Shown: positions 9,659 through 42,890 of the stretch, piece by piece | Position numbering within the stretch: the first letter of the stretch is position 1 | How the letters are laid out: every line of letters starts with the position of its first letter | IMG/VR virus record: IMGVR_UViG_3300031578_000043 | Reading direction: 5' to 3' (one strand) | Source of the DNA: a virus | DNA length: 56,686 bases | Made by a program: the position numbers and the translations under genes | The notes under the pieces: generated by a model | Databases searched by the model: none | Told to the model about the DNA's origin: nothing | What the model saw: the letters and a program-made list of their open reading frames with translations, nothing else

Positions 9659-9668
9659 ACTTCCTCCG

Positions 9669-15232: not shown

Positions 15233-15390
15233 AAAATCCTGAAATCTGGACCGACAGCGACGGCACGAAATACCGCCTCATCAATCCTGAGATCGTGAGC
15301 TACGCGCAAAAGCCGGTGAAGATCAAAGGGCGATTGGTGGAACAGCCCAATGCGGAATTTACCATCGTGACAGCGGAGAAGGTGGAGTGA
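15229..15390 (+). CDS. Possible 53-aa protein (below track cutoff)
   Basis: GTG start in a GTGA overlap with the HNH stop, and its TGA overlaps the MTase GTG start. Hand-translated VKNPEIWTDSDGTKYRLINPEIVSYAQKPVKIKGRLVEQPNAEFTIVTAEKVE. Confidence 0.3.
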   Translation: MKNPEIWTDSDGTKYRLINPEIVSYAQKPVKIKGRLVEQPNAEFTIVTAEKVE

Positions 15391-17557: not shown

Positions 17558-17988
17558 AGGGCGGTCTGCATTGGGACGAACAGCGCCTTCTGGAATTCCA
17601 GAAGCGCATAGGCGCGAGTAAGGGGCGCGTCGTTCATCTGCTGGATAAGCCGAAGCCGAACAAGCACAAAGCGATTCCGCGGGTCGTAGATGGCGTGAAG
17701 TTCGCCAGCGGTCTTGAGGCGCAGTTATGGGTCGATTATCGTCTGCTGGAAAAGGCGGGGCAGATCAGGAATCTCAGGCGGCAGGTACGATTCAGCCTGT
17801 TTGCCAACGGGGGCGAGCACATCGGGACGTACAAGGCGGATATGGTGTTCGAGGAATTGCGGGAAGGGGTCTGGAAGCGCGTCGTGAGCGATGTGAAGTC
17901 CGAACATACCCGGAACCTTCCTGCGTGGGCCAGGACGAAGAAATTGATGCTTGCCTGCCACAATATCAGCGTGAGGGAGTTGCCGTGA
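17554..17988 (+). CDS. DUF1064-like putative nuclease
   Basis: The pattern KHKAIPRVVDGVKFASGLEAQLWVDYRLLEKAGQIRNLRRQVRF...YKADMVF...VSDVKS fits the DUF1064 layout. Confidence 0.5.
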   Translation: MKGGLHWDEQRLLEFQKRIGASKGRVVHLLDKPKPNKHKAIPRVVDGVKFASGLEAQLWVDYRLLEKAGQIRNLRRQVRFSLFANGGEHIGTYKADMVFEELREGVWKRVVSDVKSEHTRNLPAWARTKKLMLACHNISVRELP

Positions 17989-18251
17989 CTGAATCCGAAT
18001 ATCTCCTTCGCGTGAAGAACTGCCGCTGCGTTATCTGCTGGTACAAACTCGGGGTGAAAACTTCGCCGTGTGACGCGCATCATGTCGGGACCGGAAACGA
18101 GCATAACGATTTCGCCACGGTTGCTCTATGCAAAGAGCATCACCAAGGCGCGACCGGGGTGCATGGGAAGCATCGCAAGGCGTTTCATTTGCTGTGGAAC
18201 ACCAGCGATATTTTACTGTTGGCGTGGACTGTGAAGGAGGTCATGCGATGA
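17985..18251 (+). CDS. Ref/DUF968-like HNH nuclease
   Basis: GTGA-coupled GTG start. CRCVICW...CDAHHV...ALCKEHHQGATGVHGKHRKAF. Confidence 0.5.
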   Translation: MTESEYLLRVKNCRCVICWYKLGVKTSPCDAHHVGTGNEHNDFATVALCKEHHQGATGVHGKHRKAFHLLWNTSDILLLAWTVKEVMR

Positions 18252-18436
18252 AAGAAAAGGACTATCTGCCGAGCGATTTTATCAGCGAGGTCAACAAATG
18301 GAAAATGGAACTGACCCGGCCTGCCGAGCCGCCGAAGTACGAGTTCAAACCGCCAAGGCCGGTATTCCCTTTTGCGCCTCATCCTCGGCAAGATGAGCTT
18401 GACGCGCAAAAGGCAATTCCGAGCCTAGTTCGGTAA
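18248..18436 (+). CDS. Hypothetical protein
   Basis: 62 aa, ATGA-coupled. Confidence 0.45.
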   Translation: MKEKDYLPSDFISEVNKWKMELTRPAEPPKYEFKPPRPVFPFAPHPRQDELDAQKAIPSLVR

Positions 18437-18527
18437 CGCTCGAAGATTCAACGTGGTTGTTTGCTGGCCTGCTGATTGCGGCGCTGGTGTTTTGTTGGTG
18501 GTGGGGAACGAAATAACGGGAGGATGA

Positions 18528-19358
18528 ATGTACCTGATCGCAGAGTGCGGAATAAACGGAAATGGCAGCGAGGAACTTGCGAAGCTGATGATTCGGCACG
18601 CGCACGAAGCTGGCTTTGACGCTGTGAAATTCCAAAAGCGCAGCCTTGAGCAATGCTATACCAAGGAATTTCTCGATTCTCCGCGCGAGTCACCGTGGGG
18701 AAAAACGCAGCGGGCGCAGAAGGAGGCGCTTGAGTTCTCGCGGTTGCAGTACACCCTGATCGACGCTTACTGCAAGGAATTGGGTGTGGCGTGGTCGGCG
18801 TCAGCCTGGGACTTGGATTCTCAGGAATTTATTCACTCGTTCAATGTTCCGTTCAACAAAGTGGCGTCACCAATGCTCGGTAACTGGCCGCTATTGCGGA
18901 AGATCGCCAGCGAGCGCAAGCGCACCTTCATTTCTACCGGCATGAGCACGCTGGCCGAAATAGACGAAGTGGTTGCGCTGTTCCGCAAGGCCGATTGCCC
19001 GTTCGAGTTGATGCACTGCAATTCGACCTATCCGATGCCGGAAGATCAGGCGAACCTGAACTGCATTCCGATGCTGCGCGATCGGTACGGGTGTGAGGTC
19101 GGCTACTCGGGCCATGAAACCTGCCTCACGAAAGTCTGCGTTGCTGCGGTTGCTCTCGGGGCGAGTTCAATCGAGCGCCATATCACGTTGGAGCGGGCGA
19201 TGTACGGGAGCGACCAAGCCGCCTCAATCGAAACACACCATCTGCGGGATTTCGTCGAAACGGTGCGGGCGATTCCTGCGATTCTCGGAACGGGGATCAA
19301 GGACGTTACCGAAAGCGAATGGCCGGCGCGGAAGAAACTGCGGGTAGAAGTCGCATGA
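18528..19358 (+). CDS. NeuB-family nonulosonic/sialic acid synthase (no obvious C-terminal SAF domain)
   Basis: YLIAECGINGNGSEELAKLMIRHAHEAGFDAVKFQKR, FISTGMSTLAEIDEVV, LMHCNSTYPMPEDQANLNCIPMLRDRYGCEVGYSGHE and GASSIERHITLER match conserved NeuB/PseI/LegI blocks. 276 aa. Confidence 0.85.
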   Translation: MYLIAECGINGNGSEELAKLMIRHAHEAGFDAVKFQKRSLEQCYTKEFLDSPRESPWGKTQRAQKEALEFSRLQYTLIDAYCKELGVAWSASAWDLDSQEFIHSFNVPFNKVASPMLGNWPLLRKIASERKRTFISTGMSTLAEIDEVVALFRKADCPFELMHCNSTYPMPEDQANLNCIPMLRDRYGCEVGYSGHETCLTKVCVAAVALGASSIERHITLERAMYGSDQAASIETHHLRDFVETVRAIPAILGTGIKDVTESEWPARKKLRVEVA

Positions 19359-20053
19359 ACGTCGTTTGCATAATCGGCGCTCGTTCTGGCTCCAAGGGCG
19401 TTCCGGGGAAAAACATTCGCCACTTGTCCGGTCATCCCCTGCTCGCTTACTCAATCCGTTCGGCCCAGGAAGCGGGCATTGCCGAAATCGTCGTATCGAC
19501 CGATTCAATCGAATACGCCAGCATCGCCAAAAAGTACGGTGCGCGTGCGGTCTTGAGACCAGATGCGATTTCTCAGGACAATTCGACCGATTTCCAGTAC
19601 ATCGCTCACGCGATTTCGACGTTTGACCCTCCTGCGGATTTGATCGTCCACCTTCGGCCGACTACACCTCTGCGAGACCCGCTGTTGATCCAAGGGGCGG
19701 TCAATGATCTGAAAGCGTGCGAGTCTGCAACGGCTTTGCGGTCCGTGGAGGAAATGAGCGAGTCTGCGTGGAAGTGCTTCGAGATATTTTCCGGTAAGCT
19801 GATCGGATTGGGCGGGGAGGCTTCGCTGGATCAATTCAACGATCCGCGTATGGAATTCAAAAAGACATTCAGGCCGAACGGCTACGTCGATGTGATTCGC
19901 ACGTCAATGATTTACAAGGGGCTTCTTCACGGCGATGCGGTTCTCCCGTACATCACGCCAGTCGTTACCGAAATCGACACTGAGGAAGATTTTGAGTTTG
20001 TGCAGTATCAGGCCCGCAAGCATCCTGAGTTGGTGCGGGCGTTTTTCCCATGA
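19355..20053 (+). CDS. Acylneuraminate (CMP-nonulosonic acid) cytidylyltransferase family protein
   Basis: N-terminal IIGARSGSKGVPGKNIRHLSGHPLLAYSI is the NeuA/CMP-sugar synthetase signature. 232 aa. ATGA-coupled to the NeuB-like gene. Confidence 0.8.
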   Translation: MNVVCIIGARSGSKGVPGKNIRHLSGHPLLAYSIRSAQEAGIAEIVVSTDSIEYASIAKKYGARAVLRPDAISQDNSTDFQYIAHAISTFDPPADLIVHLRPTTPLRDPLLIQGAVNDLKACESATALRSVEEMSESAWKCFEIFSGKLIGLGGEASLDQFNDPRMEFKKTFRPNGYVDVIRTSMIYKGLLHGDAVLPYITPVVTEIDTEEDFEFVQYQARKHPELVRAFFP

Positions 20054-21402
20054 GCGCATATTCTTTTTCGCGTGAGTCTCGGGCGGTGCCGTTTGTGAAC
20101 ACCGAGCACAGACACATTCACACCGAAATTCCGGCGCCTGGGGCGAAGGAAATCCTTGAGCGTTTGGATGTAGTCGAGTCCAGATCAATGCACGGCCAAT
20201 TGCCGATTGTGTGGGATCATGCTTTAGATCACTACGTAGCGGACAATTGCGGAAATATGTTTCTGGATTTCACGTCCGGTATTTTCGTTGCGAACGTCGG
20301 GCATTCAAATCTGGCGGTCGTGGAAGCGGTGCGGGAAGCAATGAATATCGAGCCGCTTCATTCCTACGCATACGCTACCGAAATCCGCGCCAAGTATCTC
20401 GAACGTCTAACGCAATGGTCCGGTTTCGAAAAAGCCTTCCTGCTATCGTCTGGAACTGAGGCGACTGAAGCGGCCTTGAAGCTCATTCGGATGCGCGGCC
20501 AAAAGCTCGGAAAACGGAGACCGGGAATTCTCTGCATCGACGGAAACTGGCACGGTCGGACGATGGGCGCGCAGTTGATGAGTTCCAATGCCGCACAAAA
20601 GGCGTGGATCGGTTTCGACGACCCGAGCATTACCCATTTTCCGTTTCCTACGCAGGAAATTCTGACTATCCGCCAGCAGACAGCGGCCGAGTTTTTCCGC
20701 GATTGGTTGCCGCGGATTCTGGCGGCGAAGGGGATTGATGCGCGCAGGGACTTCTGCGGAGTGATGCTTGAGGCTTTCCAAGGGTGGTCGGCGTGGTTCT
20801 ATCCTCCCGATTTCGTCCAAGAGATTGAAAAGTGGTGCCGGGAAAACAGTCTCCTGCTGTGCTTTGACGAAATGCAGGCAGGATTCGCCAGGACAGGCCG
20901 GAAGTTCGGTTATGAGCACTACGCGGTCAAGCCTGACCTGATCTGCGTCGGCAAGGGCATGGGCGGCGGATTGCCCCTTTCCGGCGTTCTGGGCAGGGCT
21001 GAGATTCTCGATCTGCCGGAAGTCGGTAATATGTCGAGCACGCACGGCGGGAATCCGCTTTGCTGCGCGGCCGGTCTTGCGGTGATTGACGAAATCGAGC
21101 GGCTGGATTTGGTGAACGAAACGGCGAGAAAGGAAATGATCCTTTTCCCGGCGTTGGCGAATTTGCGCCTGAGTTGCTGGAGCCGAGTAACCGGCTTCTG
21201 GGGGCATGGCTTGATCGCAGCGGTGCATTTCGATTCTGCGGAACTGGCAAGCCGTGTTGCCGAGCGGTGTATGGAGAAGGGCGTATTGGTGGTGCATACG
21301 GGGCGCGAGAGTATCAAACTCGGGCCTCCGCTTACAATTCCAGATGCGGCGTTGATCGAGGGCGTCGAGGTCATCGCTGAGGCGATAAAGGAACTGGCGT
21401 GA
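20050..21402 (+). CDS. Class-III PLP-dependent aminotransferase
   Basis: SSGTEATEAALKLIR, DEMQAGFARTGRKFGYEHY and a VGKGMGGGLPLSG block (PLP-Lys region) typical of the acetylornithine/GABA/GSA aminotransferase family. Confidence 0.85.
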   Translation: MSAYSFSRESRAVPFVNTEHRHIHTEIPAPGAKEILERLDVVESRSMHGQLPIVWDHALDHYVADNCGNMFLDFTSGIFVANVGHSNLAVVEAVREAMNIEPLHSYAYATEIRAKYLERLTQWSGFEKAFLLSSGTEATEAALKLIRMRGQKLGKRRPGILCIDGNWHGRTMGAQLMSSNAAQKAWIGFDDPSITHFPFPTQEILTIRQQTAAEFFRDWLPRILAAKGIDARRDFCGVMLEAFQGWSAWFYPPDFVQEIEKWCRENSLLLCFDEMQAGFARTGRKFGYEHYAVKPDLICVGKGMGGGLPLSGVLGRAEILDLPEVGNMSSTHGGNPLCCAAGLAVIDEIERLDLVNETARKEMILFPALANLRLSCWSRVTGFWGHGLIAAVHFDSAELASRVAERCMEKGVLVVHTGRESIKLGPPLTIPDAALIEGVEVIAEAIKELA

Positions 21403-21839
21403 TGCTCGGATTGCGTCATGTCGGCATTGTCGTATCTGACCTGAATGAAGCTATCGGGTTCTATTGCAGCTTGCTCGGTTTTCAGCACGTTCAAAAAGCG
21501 TATGAGTTCGGACATTCTCTCGATTCGATGCTTGCGCTTGATGGAGCGAAAGTAACCACGGTAAAACTGATTGCGCCGAACGGCGGCATGATCGAGTTGT
21601 TGAAATTCGATGAGCCAGGGAGCTCTCCGGTAGGCCGCGCGATTTTCGACCTTGGCATTTCACACATTGCGATCACGGTGCAAAACTTGGACAAGGAATA
21701 TCAGCGGTTGAAACTGTGTGGCGTGGAGTTCGTTTCCGCGCCTGTGCAATCTGGGGCGGCGCGGGTTGCGTTCGCTATCGACCCGGAGGGGAATCGAGTC
21801 GAGCTGGTTCAGGATGTTACTTTTCCAAGGGCGGCGTGA
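21399..21839 (+). CDS. VOC (glyoxalase/bleomycin-resistance/epimerase-like) family protein
   Basis: LGLRHVGIVVSDLNEAIGFYCSLLGF ... GISHIAITV ... AFAIDPEGNRVEL, paired beta-alpha-beta-beta-beta modules. Confidence 0.7.
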   Translation: MMLGLRHVGIVVSDLNEAIGFYCSLLGFQHVQKAYEFGHSLDSMLALDGAKVTTVKLIAPNGGMIELLKFDEPGSSPVGRAIFDLGISHIAITVQNLDKEYQRLKLCGVEFVSAPVQSGAARVAFAIDPEGNRVELVQDVTFPRAA

Positions 21840-22537
21840 AAGTTTGTAAGAAATGTGGCGGGACTGATTTTGTGCCTAGCGGGTATTGCAGACCGTGTGC
21901 AAAAGTGCGTGTTGCTAAATGGCAAAAAGAGCATCCAGAGAGAGGTATAGCGGCGTCTAAAAAGTGGCGCGAAGCGCATCGAGAGAAATCGAGAGCAAAC
22001 ACAAAAAAATGGCAAGAAAAAAATAAAGAATATCGCGCTGAGTATGGGCGCAAGTGGAGAGAGGAACATCAGGAAGAACATAAAGCTGCAAAAAAGAAGT
22101 GGCGTGAAAAGAACAAAGATAGACACGAGCAATATCAAATAGCGTGGGAAACAGCGAATCGCAAGCGTCGTAGTGCCGGCCGTAAGGAATGGCGAGAACA
22201 GAACAGGGAGAGAGATCGTAAAAATTTAATTGAGTGGGCAAAAAAGTATCCCGATAGAGTTCGCATCAAAGCGCAGAACAGAAGGGCGAAAAAGAAAAGT
22301 AATGGCGGCAGTCTGTCGAGAGATATAGTCTCAAAATTACTGCAATTGCAAAAAGAGAAATGCGCGATCTGCCGCGTTCCGCTTAATGGGGAGTACCATC
22401 TAGACCACATATTGCCTTTAATCCTCAAGGGCAGAAATGAAGATAAAAATATGCAATTACTTTGTCCTCCATGTAACCTGTCTAAGTCGAGCAAGCATCC
22501 TATAGAATTCATGCAATCGAGAGGGTTTCTATGTTGA
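21836..22537 (+). CDS. HNH homing-endonuclease-like protein interrupting the sugar cluster
   Basis: GTGA-coupled start. CKKCGG...CRPC. Long KKWRE-type basic repeats. C-terminal EYHLDHILPLILKGRNEDKNMQLLCPPCNLSKSSKHPIEFMQSRGFLC. A/T-rich compared with its neighbours. Confidence 0.8.
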   Translation: MKVCKKCGGTDFVPSGYCRPCAKVRVAKWQKEHPERGIAASKKWREAHREKSRANTKKWQEKNKEYRAEYGRKWREEHQEEHKAAKKKWREKNKDRHEQYQIAWETANRKRRSAGRKEWREQNRERDRKNLIEWAKKYPDRVRIKAQNRRAKKKSNGGSLSRDIVSKLLQLQKEKCAICRVPLNGEYHLDHILPLILKGRNEDKNMQLLCPPCNLSKSSKHPIEFMQSRGFLC

Positions 22538-23334
22538 GCGGCTTATCCCAAATCAACGTTGAGTTGACTTCCCGTTGTTCTAAGAAAACGGCCTGTTTTA
22601 TGTGCGGTCATCAATCGGCGGTCGTCAATCCTCTGTTGAATTTTGGCGATATGGATTTTGCTCTTGTCGAGTCAATAGAGCGGCAGATTGGCGCAGGGGT
22701 TATCGTGAGTCTGCACAAAGATGGAGACCCAGTAGATTATGAGAGATTGGGAGACGTGCTCCGCGTGTTAAAAAAGCACCCTATTTCTGTGGTCACGCAT
22801 GGCGAACGTCTGAACGAAAAAGCGGCAGAAATTATAGGTCTGTGCACCACGGTAACTTGCAGCGTGATACCGAACGACCCGGACAGGGAGATACAGTTAG
22901 AGTCGCTGCGCGGATTCCTCGCCAAGAAAGGCGCTCGGGCGCCGATGGTGCAGTTGAAATTTGTCGGGATCGTACAGAATCCTGAACCTTATCTAAGCCT
23001 AGGATTACCCGTTATAGGGCGTGCCCTACATTCAAAAAAAGGCAATTGGAACTATTACAAAATCGACCCGATCATTCCAGAGGTCCGCGTGTGCCTCGAT
23101 TTCCTCGGCCGGCCGACGGTCGATTGGAAGGGCAATCTCTACAATTGCAATCGGTTGGACGTAAAAGGCGAAGGACTGCTCGGGAACTTGAACGAAAGTA
23201 CGCTAGAGGCGCTATGGAACGGTCCCGAGCGTGCCAGGATGCTTCGGGCGCACTTGGCGGGGCGGCGGCAGGATGCTAACCCGTTGTGCGCTTCCTGCCA
23301 ATTCTACGGGGTCAGCACGCCATCGGGCGGTTAG
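22531..23334 (+). CDS. Radical SAM protein with SPASM/twitch-like C-terminal Cys motif
   Basis: N-terminal VELTSRCSKKTACFMCG (Cx5Cx2C variant of the cluster-binding motif). C-terminal GNLYNC...GLLGNLNESTLEALWNG...CASCQFY. Confidence 0.6.
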   Translation: MLSGLSQINVELTSRCSKKTACFMCGHQSAVVNPLLNFGDMDFALVESIERQIGAGVIVSLHKDGDPVDYERLGDVLRVLKKHPISVVTHGERLNEKAAEIIGLCTTVTCSVIPNDPDREIQLESLRGFLAKKGARAPMVQLKFVGIVQNPEPYLSLGLPVIGRALHSKKGNWNYYKIDPIIPEVRVCLDFLGRPTVDWKGNLYNCNRLDVKGEGLLGNLNESTLEALWNGPERARMLRAHLAGRRQDANPLCASCQFYGVSTPSGG

Positions 23335-23337
23335 TCC

Positions 23338-23472
23338 TTAATCCGCAAGAACGAGACCGAACAGCACACCAGCAACGGCGCCAGTGGCCCCGAATATCGA
23401 AAATCCTACCCATCCGAACAGACAGGGCAGCGGAAAGCACACAATCGCCAGGATGATAAGCACGGTGTACAT
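23338..23472 (-). CDS. Possible 44-aa membrane peptide (below track cutoff)
   Basis: GAGGAA RBS 5 nt before the ATG. Hand-translated MYTVLIILAIVCFPLPCLFGWVGFSIFGATGAVAGVLFGLVLAD. Confidence 0.4.
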   Translation of the reverse strand: MYTVLIILAIVCFPLPCLFGWVGFSIFGATGAVAGVLFGLVLAD

Positions 23473-23594
23473 GCTATTTCCTCAAAAGTCGTGAACGGAT
23501 AAGCTGCAGCAGGGCGGCAAGCTCGTCCAGGCGGGCGGCGAGTGCTATCCTACCGCCGGCCGAGATCGAGCGCCAAAAGGCCCGGAATCGCGTC

Positions 23595-23945
23595 CTAGTG
23601 GCCGAAAACATAAACATTCCGCGCTGCCATACCCGATTCGATTACCACGGCGGCGGCGGTCAGTTTCGGGTTATCTACCCAGGTAATGATCTTGTACGCG
23701 GCTATGCCGGCCATCACCGAACAGACAATAATCCCGGCGTGCGGGCCGAACGGTAGAGCCTTGGCGCACCCTGCCACCAGCGGGTTAAGCTCCGTCCTGG
23801 TGGTGAATAGCTGAGTCGCGGTGGTCGTTGCCACATCAGCCCCGATTGCGCGCTTTAGGTTCTTGTGTGTCCCGATCTGTTCCATGGTCGGCATTGAAGT
23901 ACATCCGACAAGTGCGGCGATTGCGAAAATTGCGATGCGTTTCAT
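23595..23945 (-). CDS. Lipoprotein, paralog of the junction-spanning lipoprotein
   Basis: MKRIAIFAIAALVGC lipobox. Shares DVATTT, IAAY, W-D-P and AARN-Y motifs with ORF 56609..321. Confidence 0.65.
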   Translation of the reverse strand: MKRIAIFAIAALVGCTSMPTMEQIGTHKNLKRAIGADVATTTATQLFTTRTELNPLVAGCAKALPFGPHAGIIVCSVMAGIAAYKIITWVDNPKLTAAAVVIESGMAARNVYVFGH

Positions 23946-23951
23946 GGTAAA

Positions 23952-24680
23952 TTACTCCTTGGGTTTTACTACCATTAAGGCAAGTGCCATTGCTGCGCGG
24001 TACTGTTTTTCGTAGGCGCTTGATTTGTGCGTTTTGGTAACAGCGGCAGACAATTCCGATTCAGAACCCGAAAAGCATCCGGTCGTGAACCGTATGCCGA
24101 TTTTCGCGTCAGCGTGAACCGTCAGTTGATCCTTACGCGAACCGATAGGGCCGACAAAGAAAAAGTCGGCATCGCCGGACACCCGCGCATTGCCGGACAC
24201 CTGCGCACCGCCGGACACCCACGCATTGCCGGACACCTGCGCAGTGCCGGACACCTGCGCACCGCCGGACACCCACGCATTGCCGGACACCCACGCACCG
24301 CCGGACACCCACGCATTGCCGGACACCTGCGCATTGCCGGACACCCACGCATTGCCGGACACCCACGCATCGCCGGACACCTGCGCATCGCCGGACACCC
24401 GCGCATTGCCGGACACCTGCGCATTGCCGGACACCCACGCATTGCCGGACACCCGCGCACCGCCGGACACCCACGCATTGCCGGACACCCACGCATCGCC
24501 GGACACCCACGCATTGCCGGACACCCACGCATCGCCGGACACCCGCGAAAGATTCTTGTCGCTCTCGATCCATCCGCCAAGTTCTCCTTTTGCGATAAGA
24601 CCGAACGAAACGAGCGCGCGAATGCGTTTTAACGTAACTCCGCAAAATACTTTTGTGTCTCCGGTAAATTCATATTTCAT
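23952..24680 (-). CDS. Hexapeptide-repeat (predicted left-handed beta-helix) protein
   Basis: N-terminal domain MKYEFTGDTKVFCGVTLKRIRAL...GGWIESDKNLS, then 21 consecutive VSG(N/D/G)A(W/Q/R) hexapeptides, then a unique C-terminal domain. GGAG RBS. Confidence 0.7.
   Translation of the reverse strand: MKYEFTGDTKVFCGVTLKRIRALVSFGLIAKGELGGWIESDKNLSRVSGDAWVSGNAWVSGDAWVSGNAWVSGGARVSGNAWVSGNAQVSGNARVSGDAQVSGDAWVSGNAWVSGNAQVSGNAWVSGGAWVSGNAWVSGGAQVSGTAQVSGNAWVSGGAQVSGNARVSGDADFFFVGPIGSRKDQLTVHADAKIGIRFTTGCFSGSESELSAAVTKTHKSSAYEKQYRAAMALALMVVKPKE
24165..24542. repeat. Tandem 18-bp periodic DNA repeat (21 units) encoding the hexapeptide array
   Basis: Units such as gccggacacccacgcatt repeat head to tail. 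The ORF track lists long open frames over this array in five of the six frames. Confidence 0.9.
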
Positions 24681-33613: not shown

Positions 33614-34230
33614 GCTTGTACGAAGACTTGGGCGTTCACAAGGACGCTCCGAAAGCAGAAATAAAGAAAGCCTACCGCAAGAAGGCGATGAAGCTGCATC
33701 CTGATCGAAAGGGTGGAGACCCGGAGAAGTTTCACGCCATTCAGAGAGCTTACGATGTTCTCAACGACGACGCGCGCAGAGCCCACTACGATGCGACTGG
33801 CGAGGAGGGTAAGGCAGATAAGCAGGGCGCTTTGATTCAGCGGCTTGCGGCCTTGTTTATGCACTTCGTCGAGACTGCGGACGTAGATCATGCCGACATT
33901 ATCGTGCTGATGCGACAGGCGTTGCTTGATGGAAAGAACAAGACTCTCATTGCGTTACAGCAGCAGCACAAGAAAATCGAGCGGTACGAGCGAACGAAAA
34001 AGCGGCTCAAGAAAAAAGGCGACGGTGAAAACCTGTTGGCGCAATTGATTGACGGACAGATCAGCATTGTCCAAAGAGGCATCGAACTCGGCAAATCCGA
34101 AATCGGCGTGGTCGAGGAATTGATTAAGATGGTGGACGGGTATTCGTATGCGGCCGACGCCGGAAGTCAGTACGCGACCATGCAGGGGCTTGCTGGAATA
34201 GCGTTTGGCCCCGGAGTGTGGCAGCGATGA
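33610..34230 (+). CDS. J-domain (DnaJ-like) protein
   Basis: SLYEDLGVHKDAPKAEIKKAYRKKAMKLHPDRKGGDPEKFHAIQRAYDVLNDDARRAHYD contains the HPD motif. No DnaJ Zn-finger or C-terminal domains. Confidence 0.8.
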   Translation: MSLYEDLGVHKDAPKAEIKKAYRKKAMKLHPDRKGGDPEKFHAIQRAYDVLNDDARRAHYDATGEEGKADKQGALIQRLAALFMHFVETADVDHADIIVLMRQALLDGKNKTLIALQQQHKKIERYERTKKRLKKKGDGENLLAQLIDGQISIVQRGIELGKSEIGVVEELIKMVDGYSYAADAGSQYATMQGLAGIAFGPGVWQR

Positions 34231-35150
34231 TCGGCGCCGTCTGCCCGCTGTGCCATGAACTGACCGGAGACGTTCTTGCAAGCACGCTGCGCCGTGGCGT
34301 CGGAACGGTTTTTCATTGCTCGAAGTGTGACCTTGGGTTTCTGGTTGGGGCGATGCGAGAAGGCTATTACCATCGTGAGTACCGCGATACGGTCAATCAC
34401 AAGGCCGAAGGGGGCGAGACGACACCGCGGGAGATATTCGATGTGTATTCGAGATATCAGGGCGGGCGTTTGGCATTTGTTCGACCGAAAATGGAATTCG
34501 GCGGTTCAATCCTTGAGATCGGCGCGAGCGCAGGGCAGTTCATTACCGGGTTCGGCCAGTGTCGCCGCTGCGCTATAGAGCCTGACCCGCGTTGCTGCGC
34601 CTTCATGCAGGCAGCGGGAATCGAGACCGATGCAAACTATCTGAAGAACTCACGATTCTACAACGAAAAGTTTGATGTTGTCTGTGCGTTCCAAGTGCTT
34701 GAGCATGTCGATGAGCCAAGATCGTTCCTCTCGGAAGTGAAGCATGTCCTGAAACCCGGTGGCACGGCGTTCATCGAAGTACCGAACCTATATGATCCGT
34801 TGCGATCGGTGTGGGGCATTCCCGAGTACGAGAAATTTTACTTTCACGCGGACCACCTATTCTATTTCTCTTGGAAGTCGCTGGTGAAGTACGCAGTGAA
34901 GGCCGGATTCACAAAGCCGCAAGTATTCTTCACGCAGGACTATTCGTTGCTCAATCACATCCACTGGCTCATGAACAAAGGCCCGCAAGCCGACTGTCAC
35001 GTTGGCCTAGGGCCGGTGAAGTTCGAAGGCAAGGACTCGGGCATGGCGGCGTGGCTGTCGCATAAGATGTCCGCGTTGAACGAGGAATACATTTCCATGC
35101 TGGAATCGACTGGCGAGACTTCGAATTTAACTCTCGTCTTGACCAATTAG
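34218..35150 (+). CDS. Class I SAM-dependent methyltransferase with N-terminal zinc ribbon
   Basis: CPLC...CSKC. Motif I ILEIGASAGQF. Post-I/II DVVCAFQVLEHVDEPRSFLSEVKHVLKPGGTAFIEVPN. Confidence 0.75.
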   Translation: MAAMIGAVCPLCHELTGDVLASTLRRGVGTVFHCSKCDLGFLVGAMREGYYHREYRDTVNHKAEGGETTPREIFDVYSRYQGGRLAFVRPKMEFGGSILEIGASAGQFITGFGQCRRCAIEPDPRCCAFMQAAGIETDANYLKNSRFYNEKFDVVCAFQVLEHVDEPRSFLSEVKHVLKPGGTAFIEVPNLYDPLRSVWGIPEYEKFYFHADHLFYFSWKSLVKYAVKAGFTKPQVFFTQDYSLLNHIHWLMNKGPQADCHVGLGPVKFEGKDSGMAAWLSHKMSALNEEYISMLESTGETSNLTLVLTN

Positions 35151-38948: not shown

Positions 38949-39968
38949 ATGCCAGTTTTGAACACGGGTTTAGTCCCCGGCGGAAGTGTCGGTGCCGAGC
39001 TAACCGCCGCAACACGCAGAGCAGTCGTCCCGGCCCTGTTCGTCCAGATCTACAAAGCCACTCCGATGCTGAACCTGCTTTTTGGCACAGCCCAAAGAGC
39101 GAAAGGCGGCATGTCCCAAGTCACCGTTCCGGTGCAGGGATCGTCGTTCGTGAACTTCGCATGGACGGACTACTCGGGCGGCTTCCCTCAACCAGCGGTG
39201 CAGCCTGGAATGCAGAACGCGGAATTCAACCTCTGCGTTGGCGTGGTTCCGATCTCCTTTATGGGGATGGAAGCCCTGATTCAATCCTCGGAAGCCATCG
39301 TACCGCTGATGCGGGCTAGAATGGCCGATGCGAAGACTGTCGCTGTCCAGGCCATGTCCACAGCGCTTTTCACCAACTCCTCGAACCTGCCGAACGCTTC
39401 TCAGATCATCAATGGTCTGCCGCAGGCTTTCGATGACGGGACCAACGTCAACAGTTACGGCGGAATTTCCAGGACTGCCAGCCCGTTCTGGAAGTCAACG
39501 CTGGTTACCGCAGCCGGCGCAGTCAATACCCGTTCCGCGATGCTCTCCTACCTCGTCCAAACTACTGCCCTGAACGGCGGCGAAGCTCCTGACTTCTGCG
39601 TGATGAGCCCTTCGGACTGGACGACTCTGATGCAGGACTTCCTGACGCTGGAACGGTTCAACACCACCCCGGCCTCGAAGTACGGCAAGGACGAATCGGT
39701 GAACGCCGGCTTCCGTGGTCTGATGCTCGGTGACACCCCGTTCTTCATGGACCCGTTCTGCCCGAAAGGGACGGCGTACATGCTGAACACGAAGTATTTC
39801 GCCGCCTACGTCTCGGAAGACGCTCCGTTCGCCTTCTCTGGGTTCTACTCGGCAATCCCGAATCTGCAAATCGCAAATGTGGGGGTCGTGATCATAGCTA
39901 TGCAAACGGTCTGTGCCAAGCCCGTTAGTGGGATGCAAATTTCTGGAATAACAGGCGGCGCGTTCTAG
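38949..39968 (+). CDS. Major capsid protein
   Basis: 339 aa following the scaffold candidate. Size and position are typical of podovirus-type HK97-fold capsid proteins. Confidence 0.7.
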   Translation: MPVLNTGLVPGGSVGAELTAATRRAVVPALFVQIYKATPMLNLLFGTAQRAKGGMSQVTVPVQGSSFVNFAWTDYSGGFPQPAVQPGMQNAEFNLCVGVVPISFMGMEALIQSSEAIVPLMRARMADAKTVAVQAMSTALFTNSSNLPNASQIINGLPQAFDDGTNVNSYGGISRTASPFWKSTLVTAAGAVNTRSAMLSYLVQTTALNGGEAPDFCVMSPSDWTTLMQDFLTLERFNTTPASKYGKDESVNAGFRGLMLGDTPFFMDPFCPKGTAYMLNTKYFAAYVSEDAPFAFSGFYSAIPNLQIANVGVVIIAMQTVCAKPVSGMQISGITGGAF

Positions 39969-40001: not shown

Positions 40002-41129
40002 ATGATGTTAGGCGGAAGCGGAATCGGCCTCGGTCTGAGGGGGAAAGTAACCAACGCACTGACGTTGCCGGCGGGGGAGACTTACATCGTCCCTGCGGGG
40101 AACTACGCCGTCAATCTTGGTCCATACACTGAGCTTCAATATCTCGATCCTGTTACCGGGATTTGGAGAACTCAGTTATGGCCGGGGCAAGACGGGCAAT
40201 TCGCAATCGACGGCGCGAACTACCGCCTTGCCAATCTCACCGGCTGCCCCGTAGCCGCTGTCATCACGACCGCGCTTGCGACTGGCGCAGCGACCGGCAT
40301 CGGCGTAACTGCAACGCTCATGACCGTCACGGCTTCGTCCGGTTCTTCGACCTGGTGCCCGATTGTCGGCGGTGCGCTTTCGCTGACCTGCGTTACCGGC
40401 GTCACCGGATCGAGCGTCGGTGCTGGCTATCTTTTCCCGCCAACAGCGATCATTTCGGCGCCGCCTCCCGGCGGTCTTCAGGCGACGGCTCACGTTACCG
40501 GAATTCCGACGACCGGCGCGTTGCTTGCCGCTCAAGTCATCATCGACAACCAGGGCGCGGGTTATCCTGTAGCCTCGACCGGGATTTCGACGGCGACCAT
40601 CACCTTCGTCAACGACCCTCGGGACACCGCAGGCAGCGGCGCCACTGTTCGCCTTGGCGCGACCGGAACCGGGCAGTTGACGGCTCTGTATCCGCTGACC
40701 CAAGGCGTTCCGCTGACGGGGGCTCCGACGCTGGCGTTCGGCGTGGGCGCGGCTGGCGCTACGTCGATCATGAACTTCACCGTGACTGCGATTGCCTCTG
40801 GCACGACGAACACGCAGACCTACGCCACGGGCACAACCCCAATCGTTACCACCATCGGGAACATCGTTTCGGCTACACCTGCCTGGACGAATCCGATTCA
40901 CGAAAAAGCCTCCACCTTCCCGCGGCCGGCGCGGATTCAGGCGGGTCTGGCTTCGAACGTCGTTACCTCAACGGGCGCCGTTGTCGAAGATGGCGGGTTC
41001 GGGATTCAACAAGCCCCGAGCGCGATTGTCATTGGGCAACTGCTGGCGATTACCGGCGTGACGCTGGGGACCGCTCCGCTGCTTACGATTGGCGGCGTGA
41101 CGGACACAAGTTGGCTGCAGCCGATCTAA
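40002..41129 (+). CDS. Thr/Ser/Gly/Ala-rich capsid-associated protein (decoration/head-fibre candidate)
   Basis: 375 aa with repeated G-x-G-Y and T/S-rich beta-like segments, directly after the capsid gene. Confidence 0.45.
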   Translation: MMLGGSGIGLGLRGKVTNALTLPAGETYIVPAGNYAVNLGPYTELQYLDPVTGIWRTQLWPGQDGQFAIDGANYRLANLTGCPVAAVITTALATGAATGIGVTATLMTVTASSGSSTWCPIVGGALSLTCVTGVTGSSVGAGYLFPPTAIISAPPPGGLQATAHVTGIPTTGALLAAQVIIDNQGAGYPVASTGISTATITFVNDPRDTAGSGATVRLGATGTGQLTALYPLTQGVPLTGAPTLAFGVGAAGATSIMNFTVTAIASGTTNTQTYATGTTPIVTTIGNIVSATPAWTNPIHEKASTFPRPARIQAGLASNVVTSTGAVVEDGGFGIQQAPSAIVIGQLLAITGVTLGTAPLLTIGGVTDTSWLQPI

Positions 41130-41143
41130 CCTCATGAGGCTTC

Positions 41144-41998
41144 ATGGAACAGCCTCAAGGGTATGTCGATACGGTGCTCGATGATGGTCGTGTTACGCCT
41201 CTGACGATTCAGACGTACACGCTCATCGAGCAAGGGCATCTAGCCAAAAACATCGTCGAGAACCTTGGGAGGGACATTCCAAGGTTCGTCAATCGTGTCG
41301 GGCTGGGTCAGATCAGGCACGCCCCTCTTGCGATAGTCTGCGCGGGGCCGACTCTCGTTGAAACAATCGACCGGGTACGCGACTTCGAAAACGTACTCGT
41401 CTGCGGATCTGCTCACGATTTCGTTGTTCGTCAAGGCATCATCCCGAACTACGCCGTGGTGTGCGACGGCGGCAAAGATGACAAGGGCAATCTGTCACTG
41501 CCTCAGAAAGATACGACCTACCTCATCGCCTCTCAGTGCGATCCGAGTTTGTTCGATCACCTGTCTGACTACCATGTGGAAATGTGGCACTACCGCGGCC
41601 AAGCTGCGCCCACAATAGAGGAAGAAGGCAGGGTGCTTAACGGGGAGCCGTCCTTGGCGTGGGGGTCAAGCGTCGGCATCGTTTCGATATCGCTTGCGAT
41701 GCACCTTGGATTTCAGCACATCCATTTCTTCGGTCTTGACTCGTCCTACGGAGACCACGGGATGAGCCATCACTGCTGCAAAATAGCAGGCAGCATGGAG
41801 TACAAGAAAGTGCCAGTCAAAGTCGGAGAGAAAGTTTTTATTTCCGACTTGGCATTGATGGAACAGACCAATCAATTTTTCCGTTTTATTGAAACGCAGC
41901 ATCAATTCATCCACGGCACTATTCACGGCAACGGTTTAATCGCTGAAATGGCGAGACAAGGAGAGCCTGGGCTAGAGAAGTACATCAGCCTCGCATGA
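41144..41998 (+). CDS. DUF115/Maf-like (motility-associated-factor family) putative nonulosonic-acid transferase
   Basis: PLAIVCAGPTL...LVCGSAHDFVVRQGIIPNYAVVCDG...YLIASQCDP...GSSVGIVSISLAMHLGFQHIHFFGLDSSYG follows the conserved DUF115 pattern (GPSL loop, I-PD-x-V-x-x-D, GGSV...A..LG...I.L.G.D). Confidence 0.55.
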   Translation: MEQPQGYVDTVLDDGRVTPLTIQTYTLIEQGHLAKNIVENLGRDIPRFVNRVGLGQIRHAPLAIVCAGPTLVETIDRVRDFENVLVCGSAHDFVVRQGIIPNYAVVCDGGKDDKGNLSLPQKDTTYLIASQCDPSLFDHLSDYHVEMWHYRGQAAPTIEEEGRVLNGEPSLAWGSSVGIVSISLAMHLGFQHIHFFGLDSSYGDHGMSHHCCKIAGSMEYKKVPVKVGEKVFISDLALMEQTNQFFRFIETQHQFIHGTIHGNGLIAEMARQGEPGLEKYISLA

Positions 41999-42002: not shown

Positions 42003-42890
42003 ATGCTTGCTAAATATCTTTCAAGAACGTCGATCCTCCTACACGACGCTTCGTTTCAATTCTATCCGCAAGCCAATGTAATCTCGTTCATCAACGAGGC
42101 GAGGGGACAGGTAGCGGCCGAAGGACAGTGCATCAAAGTCCTGCCTCCCGGAACGAACGGAATCGCCTCGATTACCGTCAACACTGGCGGGAATTATGCG
42201 GGAACTCCTACGGTCGTCATCACCGGGCCTGGAAGCGGCGCCGTAGCGACTGCGCACATGACCGGGAGTGCCGTAACCAGCATCACCGTTGGCACGGCTG
42301 GAAGCGGTTATGACAACACCACGGTTATCAGTTTCACAGGCGGGACTCCCACGGTTCAGGCCACCGCAACCCCTGTCATCAACTGCGTCAACACCGTCGC
42401 CAATCAGGAAATCTACACCTTCTCCTCTGTCAATACGCTTGCTCAACTGACTGCGGGCGTCGCATCAATCCTATGGGTTTCGTCTGTAGCCGTTTCTTGG
42501 GGCGCGTTGAAGCCGACTCTGAGGCAGTGGAATTGGGACGACCTCCAAGCCTACATCCGGTCCTATCCCGTCGTCTCCGGTCAACCTGCGATGTTCGCTC
42601 AATTCGGCCAAGGCGAGGGCGGTTCGATTTATCTTCAACCCGTTCCAACTCAAGCCGCGGCGATGGAGTGGAACTGCGTCTGCACGCCGATTGATCTTGT
42701 TGATGACACGACGGCTGAGGCTATTCCTTATCCGTGGACCGATGCCGTCCCTTACTTCGCTGCGTATCTAGCGTTCCTGAGCGGAAGAAGGCCAATCGAA
42801 GCGAAAGGGATGTACGACATTTACGACGCGACGATGAAACGCTCGCGTTCCCAGAGCGAGTCTAGCTACATACCAGATTTCTACGCATAA
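42003..42890 (+). CDS. Virion structural protein (adaptor/neck candidate) with inserted G-x-G-Y repeat domain
   Basis: 295 aa in the head-tail joining region. Confidence 0.45.
   Translation: MLAKYLSRTSILLHDASFQFYPQANVISFINEARGQVAAEGQCIKVLPPGTNGIASITVNTGGNYAGTPTVVITGPGSGAVATAHMTGSAVTSITVGTAGSGYDNTTVISFTGGTPTVQATATPVINCVNTVANQEIYTFSSVNTLAQLTAGVASILWVSSVAVSWGALKPTLRQWNWDDLQAYIRSYPVVSGQPAMFAQFGQGEGGSIYLQPVPTQAAAMEWNCVCTPIDLVDDTTAEAIPYPWTDAVPYFAAYLAFLSGRRPIEAKGMYDIYDATMKRSRSQSESSYIPDFYA

Follow-up and report, generated by a model that had tools for sequence, protein, structure and literature searches.

A phage sugar operon with a NeuB-type synthase and a BtrN-like radical-SAM enzyme, and its possible use in virion glycosylation

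What does a virus make with a sugar operon of its own, and to what would the product be attached? The question arises from a DNA stretch of 56,686 nucleotides (hereafter the window) that belongs, as originally predicted, to a phage and that is bounded by an exact 63-bp terminal repeat, which indicates a complete circular assembly. The original prediction described a coupled set of five genes at 18528-23334, interrupted by an HNH gene, as a nonulosonic-acid cluster with unusual tailoring enzymes. All six ORFs are present on the + strand, and two HNH paralogues lie elsewhere in the window:

18528..19358, + strand: NeuB-family PEP-aldehyde condensing synthase of a SAF-less subfamily, 276 aa (PF03102, E=1.5e-66)
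19355..20053 (longest ORF from 19319), + strand: CMP-ulosonic acid synthetase, a cytidylyltransferase (CTP_transf_3, PF02348, E=2e-21)
20050..21402, + strand: class-III (fold type I) PLP aminotransferase (Aminotran_3, PF00202, E=1.7e-80)
21399..21839, + strand: metal-dependent VOC protein, glyoxalase I/methylmalonyl-CoA-epimerase-like (Glyoxalase/VOC, PF00903, E=2.3e-18)
21836..22537 (longest ORF from 21716), + strand: free-standing HNH homing-type endonuclease (PF01844, E=1.5e-7)
22531..23334, + strand: BtrN-like Twitch radical-SAM enzyme, 267 aa (SPASM, E=7.7e-9)
14921-15232 and 32963-33613: paralogues of the 21836-22537 HNH gene

The synthase start is preceded, at a distance of 5 nt, by a GGGAGGA Shine-Dalgarno sequence. 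Overlaps of 4 nt (ATGA/GTGA) join the synthase to the cytidylyltransferase (whose ATG at 19355 overlaps the synthase stop codon), the cytidylyltransferase to the aminotransferase, the aminotransferase to the VOC gene and the VOC gene to the HNH gene, and the HNH and radical-SAM genes overlap by 7 nt. The HNH gene, which matches endonuclease VII/HNH in PHROG and has paralogues that make up a set of three in the window (39-55% identical), is indeed an insertion, because the VOC gene runs directly into the radical-SAM gene in the related phages L005-L007; it is mobile and stands outside the sugar pathway.

The arrangement is not due to chance, since 62 viral loci and 80 cellular ones have the same gene set around a radical-SAM homologue, in many cases with the gene order unchanged; these counts come from pattern-seeded scans and are not phylogenetically independent. 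Altogether, about 60 viral contigs carry the module, as do more than 100 genomes, mostly of anaerobic bacteria and archaea. It is thus a widespread cellular operon rather than a phage peculiarity, a spread that the original prediction had not noted. In cellular genomes the module is surrounded by genes for polysaccharides or capsules, as in L010 with its flippase and Capsule_synth, and B12-dependent radical-SAM methylases often accompany the module. No literature on the five-enzyme module was found.

The first enzyme had been assigned to the NeuB family, without a SAF tail. Its alignment spans 241 of the 241 positions of the PF03102 model (Pfam), and it has the metal and PEP ligands of nonulosonic-acid synthases: metal-binding His196 and His218 and PEP-binding K34, K111, S114, S136 and S194 are kept across 122 radical-SAM-linked homologues. 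Membership of the superfamily therefore stands. Orthology to NeuB, PseI or LegI was rejected: every equivalog cut-off is missed, those of TIGR03569 and TIGR03586 by a wide margin (NCBIfam), an SGH motif replaces SDH, and Met116 occupies the position of the catalytic Glu134 of NmNeuB, where the 122 homologues have M, S, L or C and never E or D. The 276-aa protein has no SAF domain, which is never present in this subfamily; both Glu134 and the SAF features are, we assume, required in NmNeuB. The top PDB match, 6ncs, is a SAF-less synthase of 290 aa. As judged from its sequence, the enzyme is a member of a distinct NeuB-type subfamily that is diagnostic of a radical-SAM neighbourhood, and its substrate, even in carbon count, may differ from that of NeuB. 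The low scores and the missing Glu134 equivalent and SAF domain suggest that the product may fall outside the nonulosonic acids proper, and the GmhA-like isomerases of related clusters hint at a heptose phosphate as substrate.

The assignments made originally for the next three enzymes proved sound. The cytidylyltransferase is of the nonulosonic-acid type: the PseF model TIGR03584 matches it over 217 of 222 positions (6.3e-30, under its cut-off), KdsB models are weaker (NCBIfam), and R10, S13, K14, K19 and N20 are conserved. The class-III aminotransferase reaches no NCBIfam equivalog cut-off, and its PLP lysine K302 and D273 are invariant among 37 cluster-linked homologues. The VOC protein has an H7/E66/H89/E135 tetrad that 48-49 of 49 homologues keep unchanged. 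In the surveyed loci, nearly every class-III aminotransferase gene has a VOC gene directly 3' of it, a few VOC genes lack a detected class-III partner, and loci using a class-IV aminotransferase have no VOC gene; the protein is a putative epimerase or isomerase acting beside a carbonyl.

The logic of the operon is that of nonulosonic-acid pathways (NeuB/PseI/LegI with NeuA/PseF/LegF), which use the same superfamilies PF03102 and PF02348: PEP and an aldose would give a 2-keto-3-deoxy acid, which would then be activated with CMP. These pathways possess the UDP-GlcNAc-processing enzymes NeuC, PseB/C/H/G or LegB/C, whereas the phage does not. The predicted absence of canonical upstream enzymes holds genome-wide within the ORFs scanned: neither Pfam searches of nearly all ORFs of at least 120 aa nor precomputed annotations revealed NeuC, PseB, PseC, DegT, an acetyltransferase or an N-acyltransferase. 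The missing N-acyltransferase counts against the reading proposed below. The amine, which nonulosonic-acid pathways obtain with an NAD-dependent dehydratase and a DegT-type aminotransferase, is proposed to come here from the radical-SAM enzyme and the class-III aminotransferase.

The radical-SAM enzyme carries the predicted Cx5Cx2C motif (C16-x5-C22-x2-C25), a lineage-specific two-residue insertion relative to the Cx3Cx2C of the rest of the family. Cys 16, 22, 25, 188, 206, 253 and 256 are invariant in 139/139 homologues, which have no eighth conserved Cys that could donate a hydrogen atom. The four invariant C-terminal Cys imply one auxiliary cluster, so that the Twitch part of the predicted SPASM/twitch-like C-terminus is retained and a full SPASM domain is not. 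BtrN, from the 2-deoxystreptamine pathway of butirosin, is the best PDB match both by profile (E=3.4e-19; second match 3e-6) and by fold (AF2 model, pLDDT 85.8; Foldseek 1.7e-9, followed by the Twitch dehydrogenase SpeY at 1e-5). The two proteins (267 and 250 aa) are about 18% identical; they have in common one four-Cys auxiliary cluster, presumably with the same ligand spacing, and an aminotransferase in the operon (as in BtrN/BtrS and SpeY). The phage enzyme differs from BtrN in its Cx5Cx2C motif, in a sugar-acid rather than an aminocyclitol context and in the linked aminotransferases, which are of class III or IV rather than DegT-type.

These data make the enzyme a putative dehydrogenase that would turn a sugar hydroxyl into a carbonyl (C-OH to C=O). 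Oxidation followed by transamination, predicted on the BtrN or Kdo8N pattern, is the best-supported chemistry because BtrN leads the PDB matches by profile and fold, but the pairing is not obligatory. The radical-SAM partners are a class-III aminotransferase and VOC protein, a class-IV aminotransferase, or a short-chain dehydrogenase/reductase (SDR) with no aminotransferase detected nearby. An aminotransferase went undetected in about 10% of the cellular loci (two seed families); two of these loci, re-scanned with Pfam, have none among the scanned neighbours, and in both an SDR adjoins the radical-SAM gene. A keto intermediate would account for this interchangeability. In the Kdo8N pathway of Shewanella, the oxidase KdnB and the aminotransferase KdnA act on Kdo before CMP activation. 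KdnB is an Fe-dependent enzyme of the alcohol-dehydrogenase type and not a radical-SAM enzyme, and the synthase is KdsA and not NeuB-type. The likeness, which extends to oxidation, transamination and cytidylylation with no N-acylation step needed, is thus one of function, and no homology is claimed.

Where the sugar would go is suggested by the morphogenesis region, in which the following genes were found:

34218..35150, + strand: class-I SAM methyltransferase (Methyltransf_23, E=3.4e-16)
38949..39968, + strand: major capsid protein (PHROG major head protein, E=1.1e-23)
40002..41129, + strand: p375, T/S/G/A-rich, directly 3' of the major capsid gene
41144..41998, + strand: Maf-family (DUF115/MptE-like) glycosyltransferase, catalytic domain only, 284 aa (PF01973)
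42003..42890, + strand: p295, virion structural protein with an S/T/G-rich Ig-like insert of ~85 aa (aa 48-125)

The transferase and methyltransferase genes had been overlooked in the original prediction. The Maf-like protein scores 62.2 bits against PF01973 (cut-off 34.6) and 4e-6 with the NCBIfam PseD domain. Its top PDB match is Maf 5mu5, both by profile (E=6e-12; archaeal MptE/HPPK 1e-3) and by fold (AF2 model, pLDDT 91.7; Foldseek 4e-10, followed by CMP-sialic-acid sialyltransferases). Maf enzymes O-glycosylate surface Ser/Thr residues and use CMP-ulosonic acids as donors, namely CMP-nonulosonic acids and also Kdo (PMC11339370). The phage protein has the catalytic domain of flagellin Mafs but consists of a core of ~280 aa, without the TPR or GlfM-type parts by which cellular Mafs recognize their acceptors, a point against its proposed role. 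Its gene is inserted between two virion genes, just 3' of the capsid gene, and the same placement close behind capsid genes is seen for Maf-like genes of several unrelated lineages of phages.

Several observations link this gene to the sugar operon. The closest Maf relatives are all on contigs that also carry the radical-SAM gene, seven contig sizes are common to the listings of radical-SAM and Maf homologues, and locus L084 has a contiguous order Maf, NeuB, class-IV aminotransferase, radical SAM, cytidylyltransferase; on the other hand, the 80 cellular clusters have no Maf gene in the 10 kb to either side. Other phages have Maf fused to a methyltransferase domain, and the methyltransferase of the window, encoded in the interval from the terminase/DnaJ genes to the portal gene, shares 34% identity with that domain across 103 aa. 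Sister phages sharing the MCP-p375-p295-p588 module lack Maf and have no methyltransferase copy in their terminase-portal interval, and their seven contigs of at least 30 kb are absent from the collection-wide radical-SAM scan, so that the sugar cluster is missing along with the two genes. The methyltransferase and Maf genes are thus co-inherited. Their presence in the morphogenesis module argues for protein glycosylation, probably of the virion, over modification of host glycans or DNA, although a position among structural genes could be a mere moron insertion site.

Among the acceptors, p295, whose PHROG matches are Ig-like repeats of virion structural, head-closure and tail proteins, is the leading candidate, on evidence that is only suggestive: Maf-bearing phages have the insert and an S+T fraction of 0.17-0.21 (against 0.10-0.16), but one Maf-less phage also has the S/T-rich insert. 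An alternative candidate is p375, kept after the capsid gene in all relatives and matching no family in Pfam or PHROG; the major capsid protein is a possible one.

We infer, with about even confidence, that the phage's sugar product is a non-canonical CMP-amino-ulosonic acid and that it serves to O-glycosylate a protein of the virion. The proposed accessory system would have three parts, the sugar operon, the Maf-family transferase and the SAM methyltransferase, and can be drawn as follows, the operon steps being listed in no particular order. The SAF-less synthase would condense PEP with a host-supplied, possibly phosphorylated, aldose. The BtrN-like enzyme would oxidize one hydroxyl to a carbonyl, beside which the VOC protein would epimerize or isomerize the sugar; the aminotransferase would convert the carbonyl into an amine, and the cytidylyltransferase would make the CMP-sugar. 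The Maf-family transferase would O-link the sugar to Ser/Thr of a virion protein, at best the p295 insert and alternatively p375 or the capsid protein, and the methyltransferase would methylate the sugar or the acceptor.

Other readings of the operon itself were considered. It is distinctly unlikely that the radical-SAM enzyme instead epimerizes or dehydrates the ulosonic acid or forms a C-C bond on it, the aminotransferase drawing its carbonyl from elsewhere. The epimerase EpeE and RiPP-modifying SPASM enzymes do appear in the Foldseek list at ~1e-5, and both the loci without a detected aminotransferase and the frequent B12-dependent methylases would suit such a role. However, BtrN leads all other hits by ~13 orders of magnitude for sequence and by 4 for fold, with SpeY second, no eighth Cys is conserved as a hydrogen-atom donor, and the SDR of the two aminotransferase-less loci fits a keto product. 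Still less probable is an ordinary AMG set in which NeuB and NeuA boost canonical Neu5Ac, Pse, Leg or Kdn and the other three proteins are unrelated. Although the NeuB and PseF models score best and other phages carry NeuB homologues alone, the wide shortfall against both equivalog cut-offs argues against it, as do the translational coupling of five genes that co-occur in more than 140 loci and a synthase subfamily, devoid of Glu134 and SAF, that marks the radical-SAM neighbourhood.

As for the target, the CMP-sugar might, whether or not the phage Maf takes part, be used on the flagellin, pilin, S-layer, LPS or capsule of the host and so block superinfection or alter host recognition, as the original prediction had offered as an alternative. 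This is possible but unlikely. Flagellin is the target of every characterised Maf, the cellular module occurs in capsule contexts, late operons are a common site of moron genes, and the lambdoid recombination, ParB and nin-like genes of the phage fit a temperate or plasmid-like lifestyle. Nevertheless, genome scans identified no integrase or repressor, the phage Maf has no flagellin-binding domains, its homologues directly follow capsid genes in unrelated lineages, and the parts sit at three separate sites of insertion, of which the morphogenesis module holds two, a pattern better suited to a role in the virion. Transfer of the sugar or amine to phage DNA bases is extremely improbable. Glycosylation of DNA by phages is known (Pyle et al. 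2024, as cited in PMC12619734), and genes for DNA methylases and HNH nucleases abound in this phage. Against this, genome scans found no hydroxymethylase, thymidylate-synthase-like, DNA glycosyltransferase or kinase genes, and the sole transferase belongs to a family of protein O-glycosyltransferases. CMP-ulosonic acids are not known to be donors for DNA modification.

Decoration of the virion, the preferred reading, has a parallel in mycobacteriophages, whose glycosyltransferases decorate their own capsid and tail proteins (Freeman et al. 2023, as cited in PMC12619734 and PMC12801897). In the phage described here, the donor pathway would be phage-encoded and of the CMP-ulosonic-acid type, with radical-SAM chemistry. 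The mycobacteriophages, by contrast, reportedly use conventional nucleotide-hexose glycosyltransferases and host sugar donors. The presence of a Maf-type transferase among the capsid genes suggests that the virus may coat its own particle with the sugar made by its operon.

The stretch is a phage genome carrying an exact 63-bp terminal direct repeat (positions 1-63 and 56624-56686); the circular assembly, about 56.6 kb long, is therefore complete. The sugar cluster is preceded by genes for a RecE-like exonuclease, Erf, a helicase, ParB, NinB and a resolvase, and followed by those for the large terminase, an SU10-like portal and the major head protein. The six ORFs of the original prediction were all found on the + strand, with the same coordinates.

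Genes of the sugar cluster (coordinates, strand, family, Pfam E-value)
18528-19358, + strand, NeuB-type synthase (PF03102), E=1.5e-66
19319/19355-20053, + strand, cytidylyltransferase CTP_transf_3 (PF02348), E=2e-21
20050-21402, + strand, class-III aminotransferase Aminotran_3 (PF00202), E=1.7e-80
21399-21839, + strand, Glyoxalase/VOC protein (PF00903), E=2.3e-18
21716/21836-22537, + strand, HNH protein, E=1.5e-7
22531-23334, + strand, radical-SAM enzyme (rSAM), matching SPASM (PF13186), E=7.7e-9

NCBIfam concurs with Pfam on the cluster enzymes, none of which reaches the cut-off of any named equivalog. Successive genes overlap by 4 nt (ATGA/GTGA), the HNH/rSAM overlap being 7 nt, and a GGGAGGA ribosome-binding site lies upstream of the first gene. 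A promoter/terminator scan of 17900-24000 performed no better than on shuffled sequence. The cluster does not stand out from its genome in GC content, and so gives no indication of having been acquired recently.

The HNH gene lying between the VOC and rSAM genes is indeed a mobile insertion, since VOC abuts rSAM in related phages. It belongs to a set of three paralogues (14921-15232, 21836-22537 and 32963-33613) that are 39-55% identical, one interrupting the sugar operon and one coming after the terminase gene; their scattering suggests an actively spreading family of homing endonucleases. Elsewhere in the genome, an N6/N4 DNA methyltransferase ORF (15387-17090) encodes 567 aa, whereas that of a related phage has 273 aa; a low-complexity insert of ~290 aa, perhaps an intervening element or the remains of a decayed insertion, splits its Pfam match in two. 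An alternative-frame ORF spanning this insert (15622-16308, 228 aa) was considered as a further HNH gene and rejected, as it has neither a Pfam match nor any similarity to the three HNH genes. On the - strand, 23952-24680 encodes a 242-aa protein with ~20 'GNAWVSG' heptad repeats that matches the YdcK beta-solenoid (1.5e-31), bactofilin and PHROG families of unknown function, and 10104-10712 encodes a 202-aa protein matching the beta sliding clamp of DNA polymerase III (central domain, E=1.6e-8).

The synthase belongs, as had been proposed, to the NeuB superfamily: it matches PF03102 with 224.8 bits (cut-off 22.1) over 241/241 model positions. The profile check upholds this superfamily assignment but not a closer one, as the equivalog cut-offs of both NeuB (NCBIfam TIGR03569, 231.7 for a cut-off of 399.65) and PseI (TIGR03586, 163 for 340.25) are missed. 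In NeuB and PseI, the SAF (antifreeze-like) domain provides a substrate-binding arginine (Arg314 in NmNeuB). The phage enzyme (276 aa) stops after the barrel, without the SAF tail whose absence had already been pointed out, and this domain is absent from all 122 members of the rSAM-linked subfamily (median 276 aa). The synthase was aligned to the solved structures of NeuB, PseI and SpsE, and 122 distinct rSAM-linked homologues were then aligned. Its Met116 aligns with Glu134 of NmNeuB, a position occupied by E in NmNeuB, PseI and SpsE, by D in 6ncs, and by M, S, L or C, never E or D, in the 122 rSAM-linked sequences. The metal-binding pair H196 and H218, together with K34, K111, S114, S136, S194, E6, E216 and D229, is kept in 115-122 of these 122 homologues, and Q36 and Y168 are further conserved PEP-binding positions. 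The SDH motif is replaced by SGH in this subfamily, to which a 'GSDQ' motif is specific. Since the metal and PEP ligands are kept while the SAF domain and the acidic residue at the Glu134 position are lost, the protein is, to judge from its sequence, a PEP-aldehyde condensing enzyme of the NeuB superfamily and not an orthologue of NeuB, PseI or LegI. Related clusters quite commonly include a GmhA-like sedoheptulose-7-phosphate isomerase (188-201 bits, slightly below equivalog cut-offs; 9403-10011 in locus L043 and 10889-11482 in L010, two of the surveyed loci), and one of them includes a HAD phosphatase. These neighbours hint that the substrate is a phosphorylated aldose, perhaps a heptose (phosphate).

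The expected C16-x5-C22-x2-C25 motif is present in the rSAM. Most of the family carries the canonical Cx3Cx2C; Cx5Cx2C corresponds to a 2-residue insertion that is nearly confined to viral members. Seven cysteines are invariant in 139/139 distinct homologues: three bind the SAM cluster, and C188, C206, C253 and C256 one auxiliary cluster. The original prediction of a SPASM/twitch-like C-terminus stands for Twitch but not for a full SPASM domain, as only four conserved cysteines are found there; the seven-Cys SPASM motif CX9-15GX4C...CX2CX5CX3C...C is lacking and the PF13186 match is partial (model positions 9-67). Pfam does not report PF04055 for this protein, the radical-SAM core being matched by profile and fold (BtrN and NifB). 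Against PDB, the rSAM profile retrieves BtrN (E=3.4e-19), the alignment taking in the N-terminal as well as the C-terminal part, followed by NifB (3e-6). The AlphaFold model (pLDDT 85.8) has BtrN as its best fold match (E=1.7e-9) and then the 'Twitch radical SAM dehydrogenase SpeY'. The four-Cys single auxiliary cluster, combined with these profile and fold matches, makes the enzyme a Twitch protein closest to BtrN. BtrN and SpeY, the closest characterised relatives, oxidise a secondary alcohol, after which an aminotransferase can add an amine. This relationship lends support to the suggested pairing of a BtrN-type dehydrogenase with a transaminase. The enzyme is thereby a putative sugar-hydroxyl dehydrogenase, which would turn a secondary alcohol into a ketone by a two-electron oxidation.

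The cytidylyltransferase scores above the cut-off of PF02348 (77.2 bits for 22.6) and below that of PseF (TIGR03584, 104.5 for 205.7), the KdsB models being lower still. The aminotransferase matches PF00202 with 271.1 bits and has an invariant PLP lysine (K302) and an invariant D273; its nearest NCBIfam models are those of acetylornithine and GABA transaminases, without any equivalog cut-off being attained. The VOC protein (67.2 bits against PF00903) has an invariant H/E/H/E metal site (H7, E66, H89 and E135) and would epimerise or isomerise next to the carbonyl, a step presumably dispensable in the route using a class-IV aminotransferase. Pfam scans of nearly all remaining ORFs, together with the precomputed annotation of identical contigs, detected no NeuC, PseB/C/G/H or DegT-type aminotransferase (Pfam) anywhere in the genome, in line with the claim that the canonical upstream enzymes are absent. 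No acyltransferase gene, flagellar gene or member of the Fe-ADH and KdsA families was found in the genome either. Phosphonate and aminocyclitol biosynthesis were both considered and rejected: neither a PEP mutase nor an inositol-phosphate-synthase-type gene is present, and the cytidylyltransferase belongs to the NulO type. BtrN/BtrS, SpeY and Kdo8N are precedents for a logic of oxidation then transamination. However, the Kdo8N pathway (KdnA/KdnB) relies on a KdnB-type Fe-dependent alcohol dehydrogenase/oxidase and on Kdo made by KdsA, so that the likeness to it, drawn by analogy, is functional only.

Among 50,697 phage records, a nucleotide search with the cluster and a tblastn search with the rSAM found no match, indicating that the cluster is absent from cultured/deposited phages; the NeuB-type query gave three distant matches only. 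A large protein collection contains 115 rSAM homologues, many of them from 45-56 kb contigs. In a profile search of 1.84 billion cluster representatives, ~35 full-length 50%-identity rSAM clusters score above 230 bits, below which the score drops to a broader family of 310-340 aa. A scan of IMG/VR yielded 62 viral loci with rSAM relatives and a scan of one genome per species 117 cellular relatives. The latter come mostly from anaerobes and belong to Omnitrophota, Desulfovibrionales, Lentisphaerae, Planctomycetes, Elusimicrobia, Leptospirales, Saccharibacteria, Methanoperedens, Woesearchaeota and one Asgard archaeon, with a top identity of 51% to the window rSAM. No prophage matching the window was found among the cellular genomes scanned. 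The neighbours of the rSAM gene were counted by phmmer in ±10 kb flanks of the 80 cellular loci kept.

Genes found near rSAM in 80 cellular loci
NeuB-type synthase, 69/80
Cytidylyltransferase, 66/80
VOC, 42/80
Class-III aminotransferase, 35/80
B12-radical-SAM, 34/80
Methyltransferase, 27/80
Class-IV aminotransferase, 19/80
GmhA-like isomerase, 18/80

Many cellular loci show the order NeuB, cytidylyltransferase, class-III aminotransferase, VOC and rSAM, identical to that of the window. Three flavours of the module can be recognized. In one, VOC is nearly always directly 3' of the class-III aminotransferase gene, a few loci having VOC without a detected class-III aminotransferase; another has a class-IV aminotransferase and no VOC. 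In the last, no aminotransferase was detected near rSAM, and a short-chain dehydrogenase/reductase (SDR) gene lies directly upstream of rSAM in the two loci examined, both cellular clusters (9069-9980 in L164 and 9142-9978 in L208). This swap of a transaminase for a ketoreductase beside rSAM is what would be expected if the rSAM product were a keto sugar. In the Desulfovibrio locus L164 there are also genes for FkbM/Methyltransf_23 methyltransferases and for a TPP enzyme. The class-III/VOC flavour often comes with a methylase-like, B12-binding radical-SAM protein and with a UbiG-like methyltransferase (loci L011 and L058-L074 and many cellular loci), which suggests that the same sugar occurs there in C- or O-methylated form.

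Two genes overlooked in the original prediction lie in the virion module. One, at 41144-41998, two genes after the major capsid gene, encodes a 284-aa Maf-type protein matching PF01973 (DUF115/MptE-like; 62.2 bits for a cut-off of 34.6) and, weakly, the NCBIfam PseD domain. A profile built from its phage homologues retrieves from PDB the Maf flagellin glycosyltransferase 5mu5 (6e-12), archaeal MptE/HPPK reaching 1e-3. The AlphaFold model, built with database homologues (pLDDT 91.7), has 5mu5 as its top match (4e-10), ahead of CMP-sialic-acid-dependent GT29 sialyltransferases (~6e-6) and HPPK (8e-6). The catalytic domain is thus common to the phage protein and the Maf flagellin glycosyltransferases, but the full-length ~600-aa architecture is theirs only: the phage protein aligns only to residues 265-426 of 5mu5 and lacks the acceptor-binding N-/C-terminal (TPR) domains and a GlfM partner. 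Maf enzymes transfer nonulosonic acids in CMP-activated form, as well as Kdo, to surface-exposed Ser/Thr in O-linkage (PMC11339370), their acceptor specificity being provided by extra domains or partner proteins (preprint 10.1101/2023.12.03.569772). The other overlooked gene, at 34218-35150 between terminase and portal, encodes a class-I SAM methyltransferase.

The Maf gene is flanked by two genes for virion-module proteins.

Genes flanking the Maf gene
40002-41129, p375, T/S/G/A-rich
42003-42890, p295, residues 53-147 resembling Ig-like repeats of virion structural proteins

In phages having Maf, p295 carries an S/T/G-rich insert of ~85 aa and its S+T content is 0.17-0.21, compared with 0.10-0.16 in Maf-less phages; the link of the insert to Maf is suggestive, as one Maf-less phage has it as well. 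Neither p375 nor the capsid protein shows such a difference in S/T content between the two groups. A tail-region protein (45695-47755, 686 aa), rich in G/S/T/A and containing repeated 'DTSALSGxAxQLTTAA' units, may be a further target of glycosylation or else a protein of the virion interior.

The closest Maf relatives in IMG/VR are all on contigs also bearing an rSAM cluster. In the large collection, homologues of both rSAM and Maf come from contigs with lengths of 56686, 54517, 53906, 54077, 55400, 54427 and 31490, which is taken to mean that these seven contigs each carry both genes. In locus L084, the genes for Maf, NeuB, class-IV aminotransferase, rSAM and cytidylyltransferase are contiguous. 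In phages of the class-IV flavour, Maf is part of fusion proteins of 560-595 aa that begin with a Zn-ribbon and a class-I SAM methyltransferase domain, the latter homologous to the separate methyltransferase of the window.

Maf-methyltransferase fusions in surveyed loci
L014, 18294-19970
L016, 15099-16883
L031, 14300-16084
L047, 14082-15818

Phages with a 50-68% identical capsid protein have retained the gene order MCP-p375-p295-p588 and have no Maf gene. These Maf-less sister phages also lack the methyltransferase between terminase and portal, and the collection-wide rSAM scan contains none of their seven contigs of at least 30 kb, of which four are genome-length. They are a natural knock-out of the three-part system. 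The sugar cluster, Maf and the methyltransferase are clearly gained and lost together, the counts being phylogenetically non-independent and coming from pattern-seeded scans. Maf relatives were scanned with two separate alignments, the combined set being too diverse. About 200 more distant Maf-like genes were found in IMG/VR contigs (L093-L157), typically 0.4-1.5 kb downstream of the capsid gene, with as many as three paralogues (L103) and, within 10 kb, no gene of NeuB type. Such phages might use host CMP-sugars, and a Maf gene next to that of the capsid may be common to environmental phages in general.

Taken as a whole, the best-supported reading predicted from these genes is a donor pathway plus a transferase for virion O-glycosylation. 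The phage-encoded pathway would make a non-canonical CMP-amino-ulosonic acid as donor, and the Maf-type transferase would O-glycosylate a virion protein with that sugar. This model is weakened by the minimal Maf without acceptor-binding domain, by the divergence of the synthase, and by the cellular modules, none of the 80 loci having a Maf gene within ±10 kb. Four rival explanations have to be weighed with it. The sugar system could serve host-surface conversion, a reading to be set beside the capsid-adjacent position of the transferase gene, or it could be a plain auxiliary supply of a canonical sugar, to be set beside the missed NeuB, PseI and PseF cut-offs. The rSAM could have a role other than that of a dehydrogenase, a view that meets the BtrN and SpeY matches and the interchangeable partners, and the pathway could act in DNA modification.

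Beyond virion O-glycosylation, a wider proposal can be put forward tentatively; it is quite possible, the balance leaning slightly against it. It posits an undescribed family of CMP-activated amino/keto ulosonic acids (possibly C8 to C10), made by a SAF-less NeuB-type synthase and tailored by a BtrN-like rSAM dehydrogenase whose partners (class III with VOC, a class-IV aminotransferase, or an SDR) are interchangeable. The family would be widespread in anaerobic bacteria, CPR/DPANN and archaea, and would have been captured by many environmental phages that use a capsid-adjacent minimal Maf to 'sialylate' their own virions.

The enzyme superfamilies involved are already known. Freeman et al. (2023) reportedly described glycosylation of mycobacteriophage virions by ordinary glycosyltransferases using host donors. 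No literature was found on phage Maf or on NeuB with radical SAM, and no paper in the library searched joins 'nonulosonic' and 'radical SAM'. Likewise, no prior description was found of a BtrN-like rSAM coupled to a dedicated SAF-less NeuB subfamily, of the spread of that module in anaerobes and their phages, or of its link to a minimal transferase of Maf type encoded amid the capsid genes.

If the proposal is true, radical-SAM chemistry enters the biosynthesis of sialic-acid-like sugars, through an anaerobic route without NAD-dependent dehydratase or DegT-type enzyme and with a new NeuB subfamily whose aldehyde pocket is re-shaped. Many anaerobes not yet in culture, among them Omnitrophota, Desulfovibrionales, Planctomycetes, Saccharibacteria, Methanoperedens and Asgard archaea, would be predicted to bear an unknown sugar on their surfaces. 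The 284-aa minimal Maf and the five-gene donor operon would constitute a compact glyco-engineering toolkit. This phage would be the first whose genome supplies the donor pathway together with a Maf-type transferase for O-glycosylation of its own particle, and its virions the first phage particles bearing a self-made sialic-acid-like sugar, with a bearing on phage stability, on adsorption to mucus/biofilm and on evasion of immunity or receptors.
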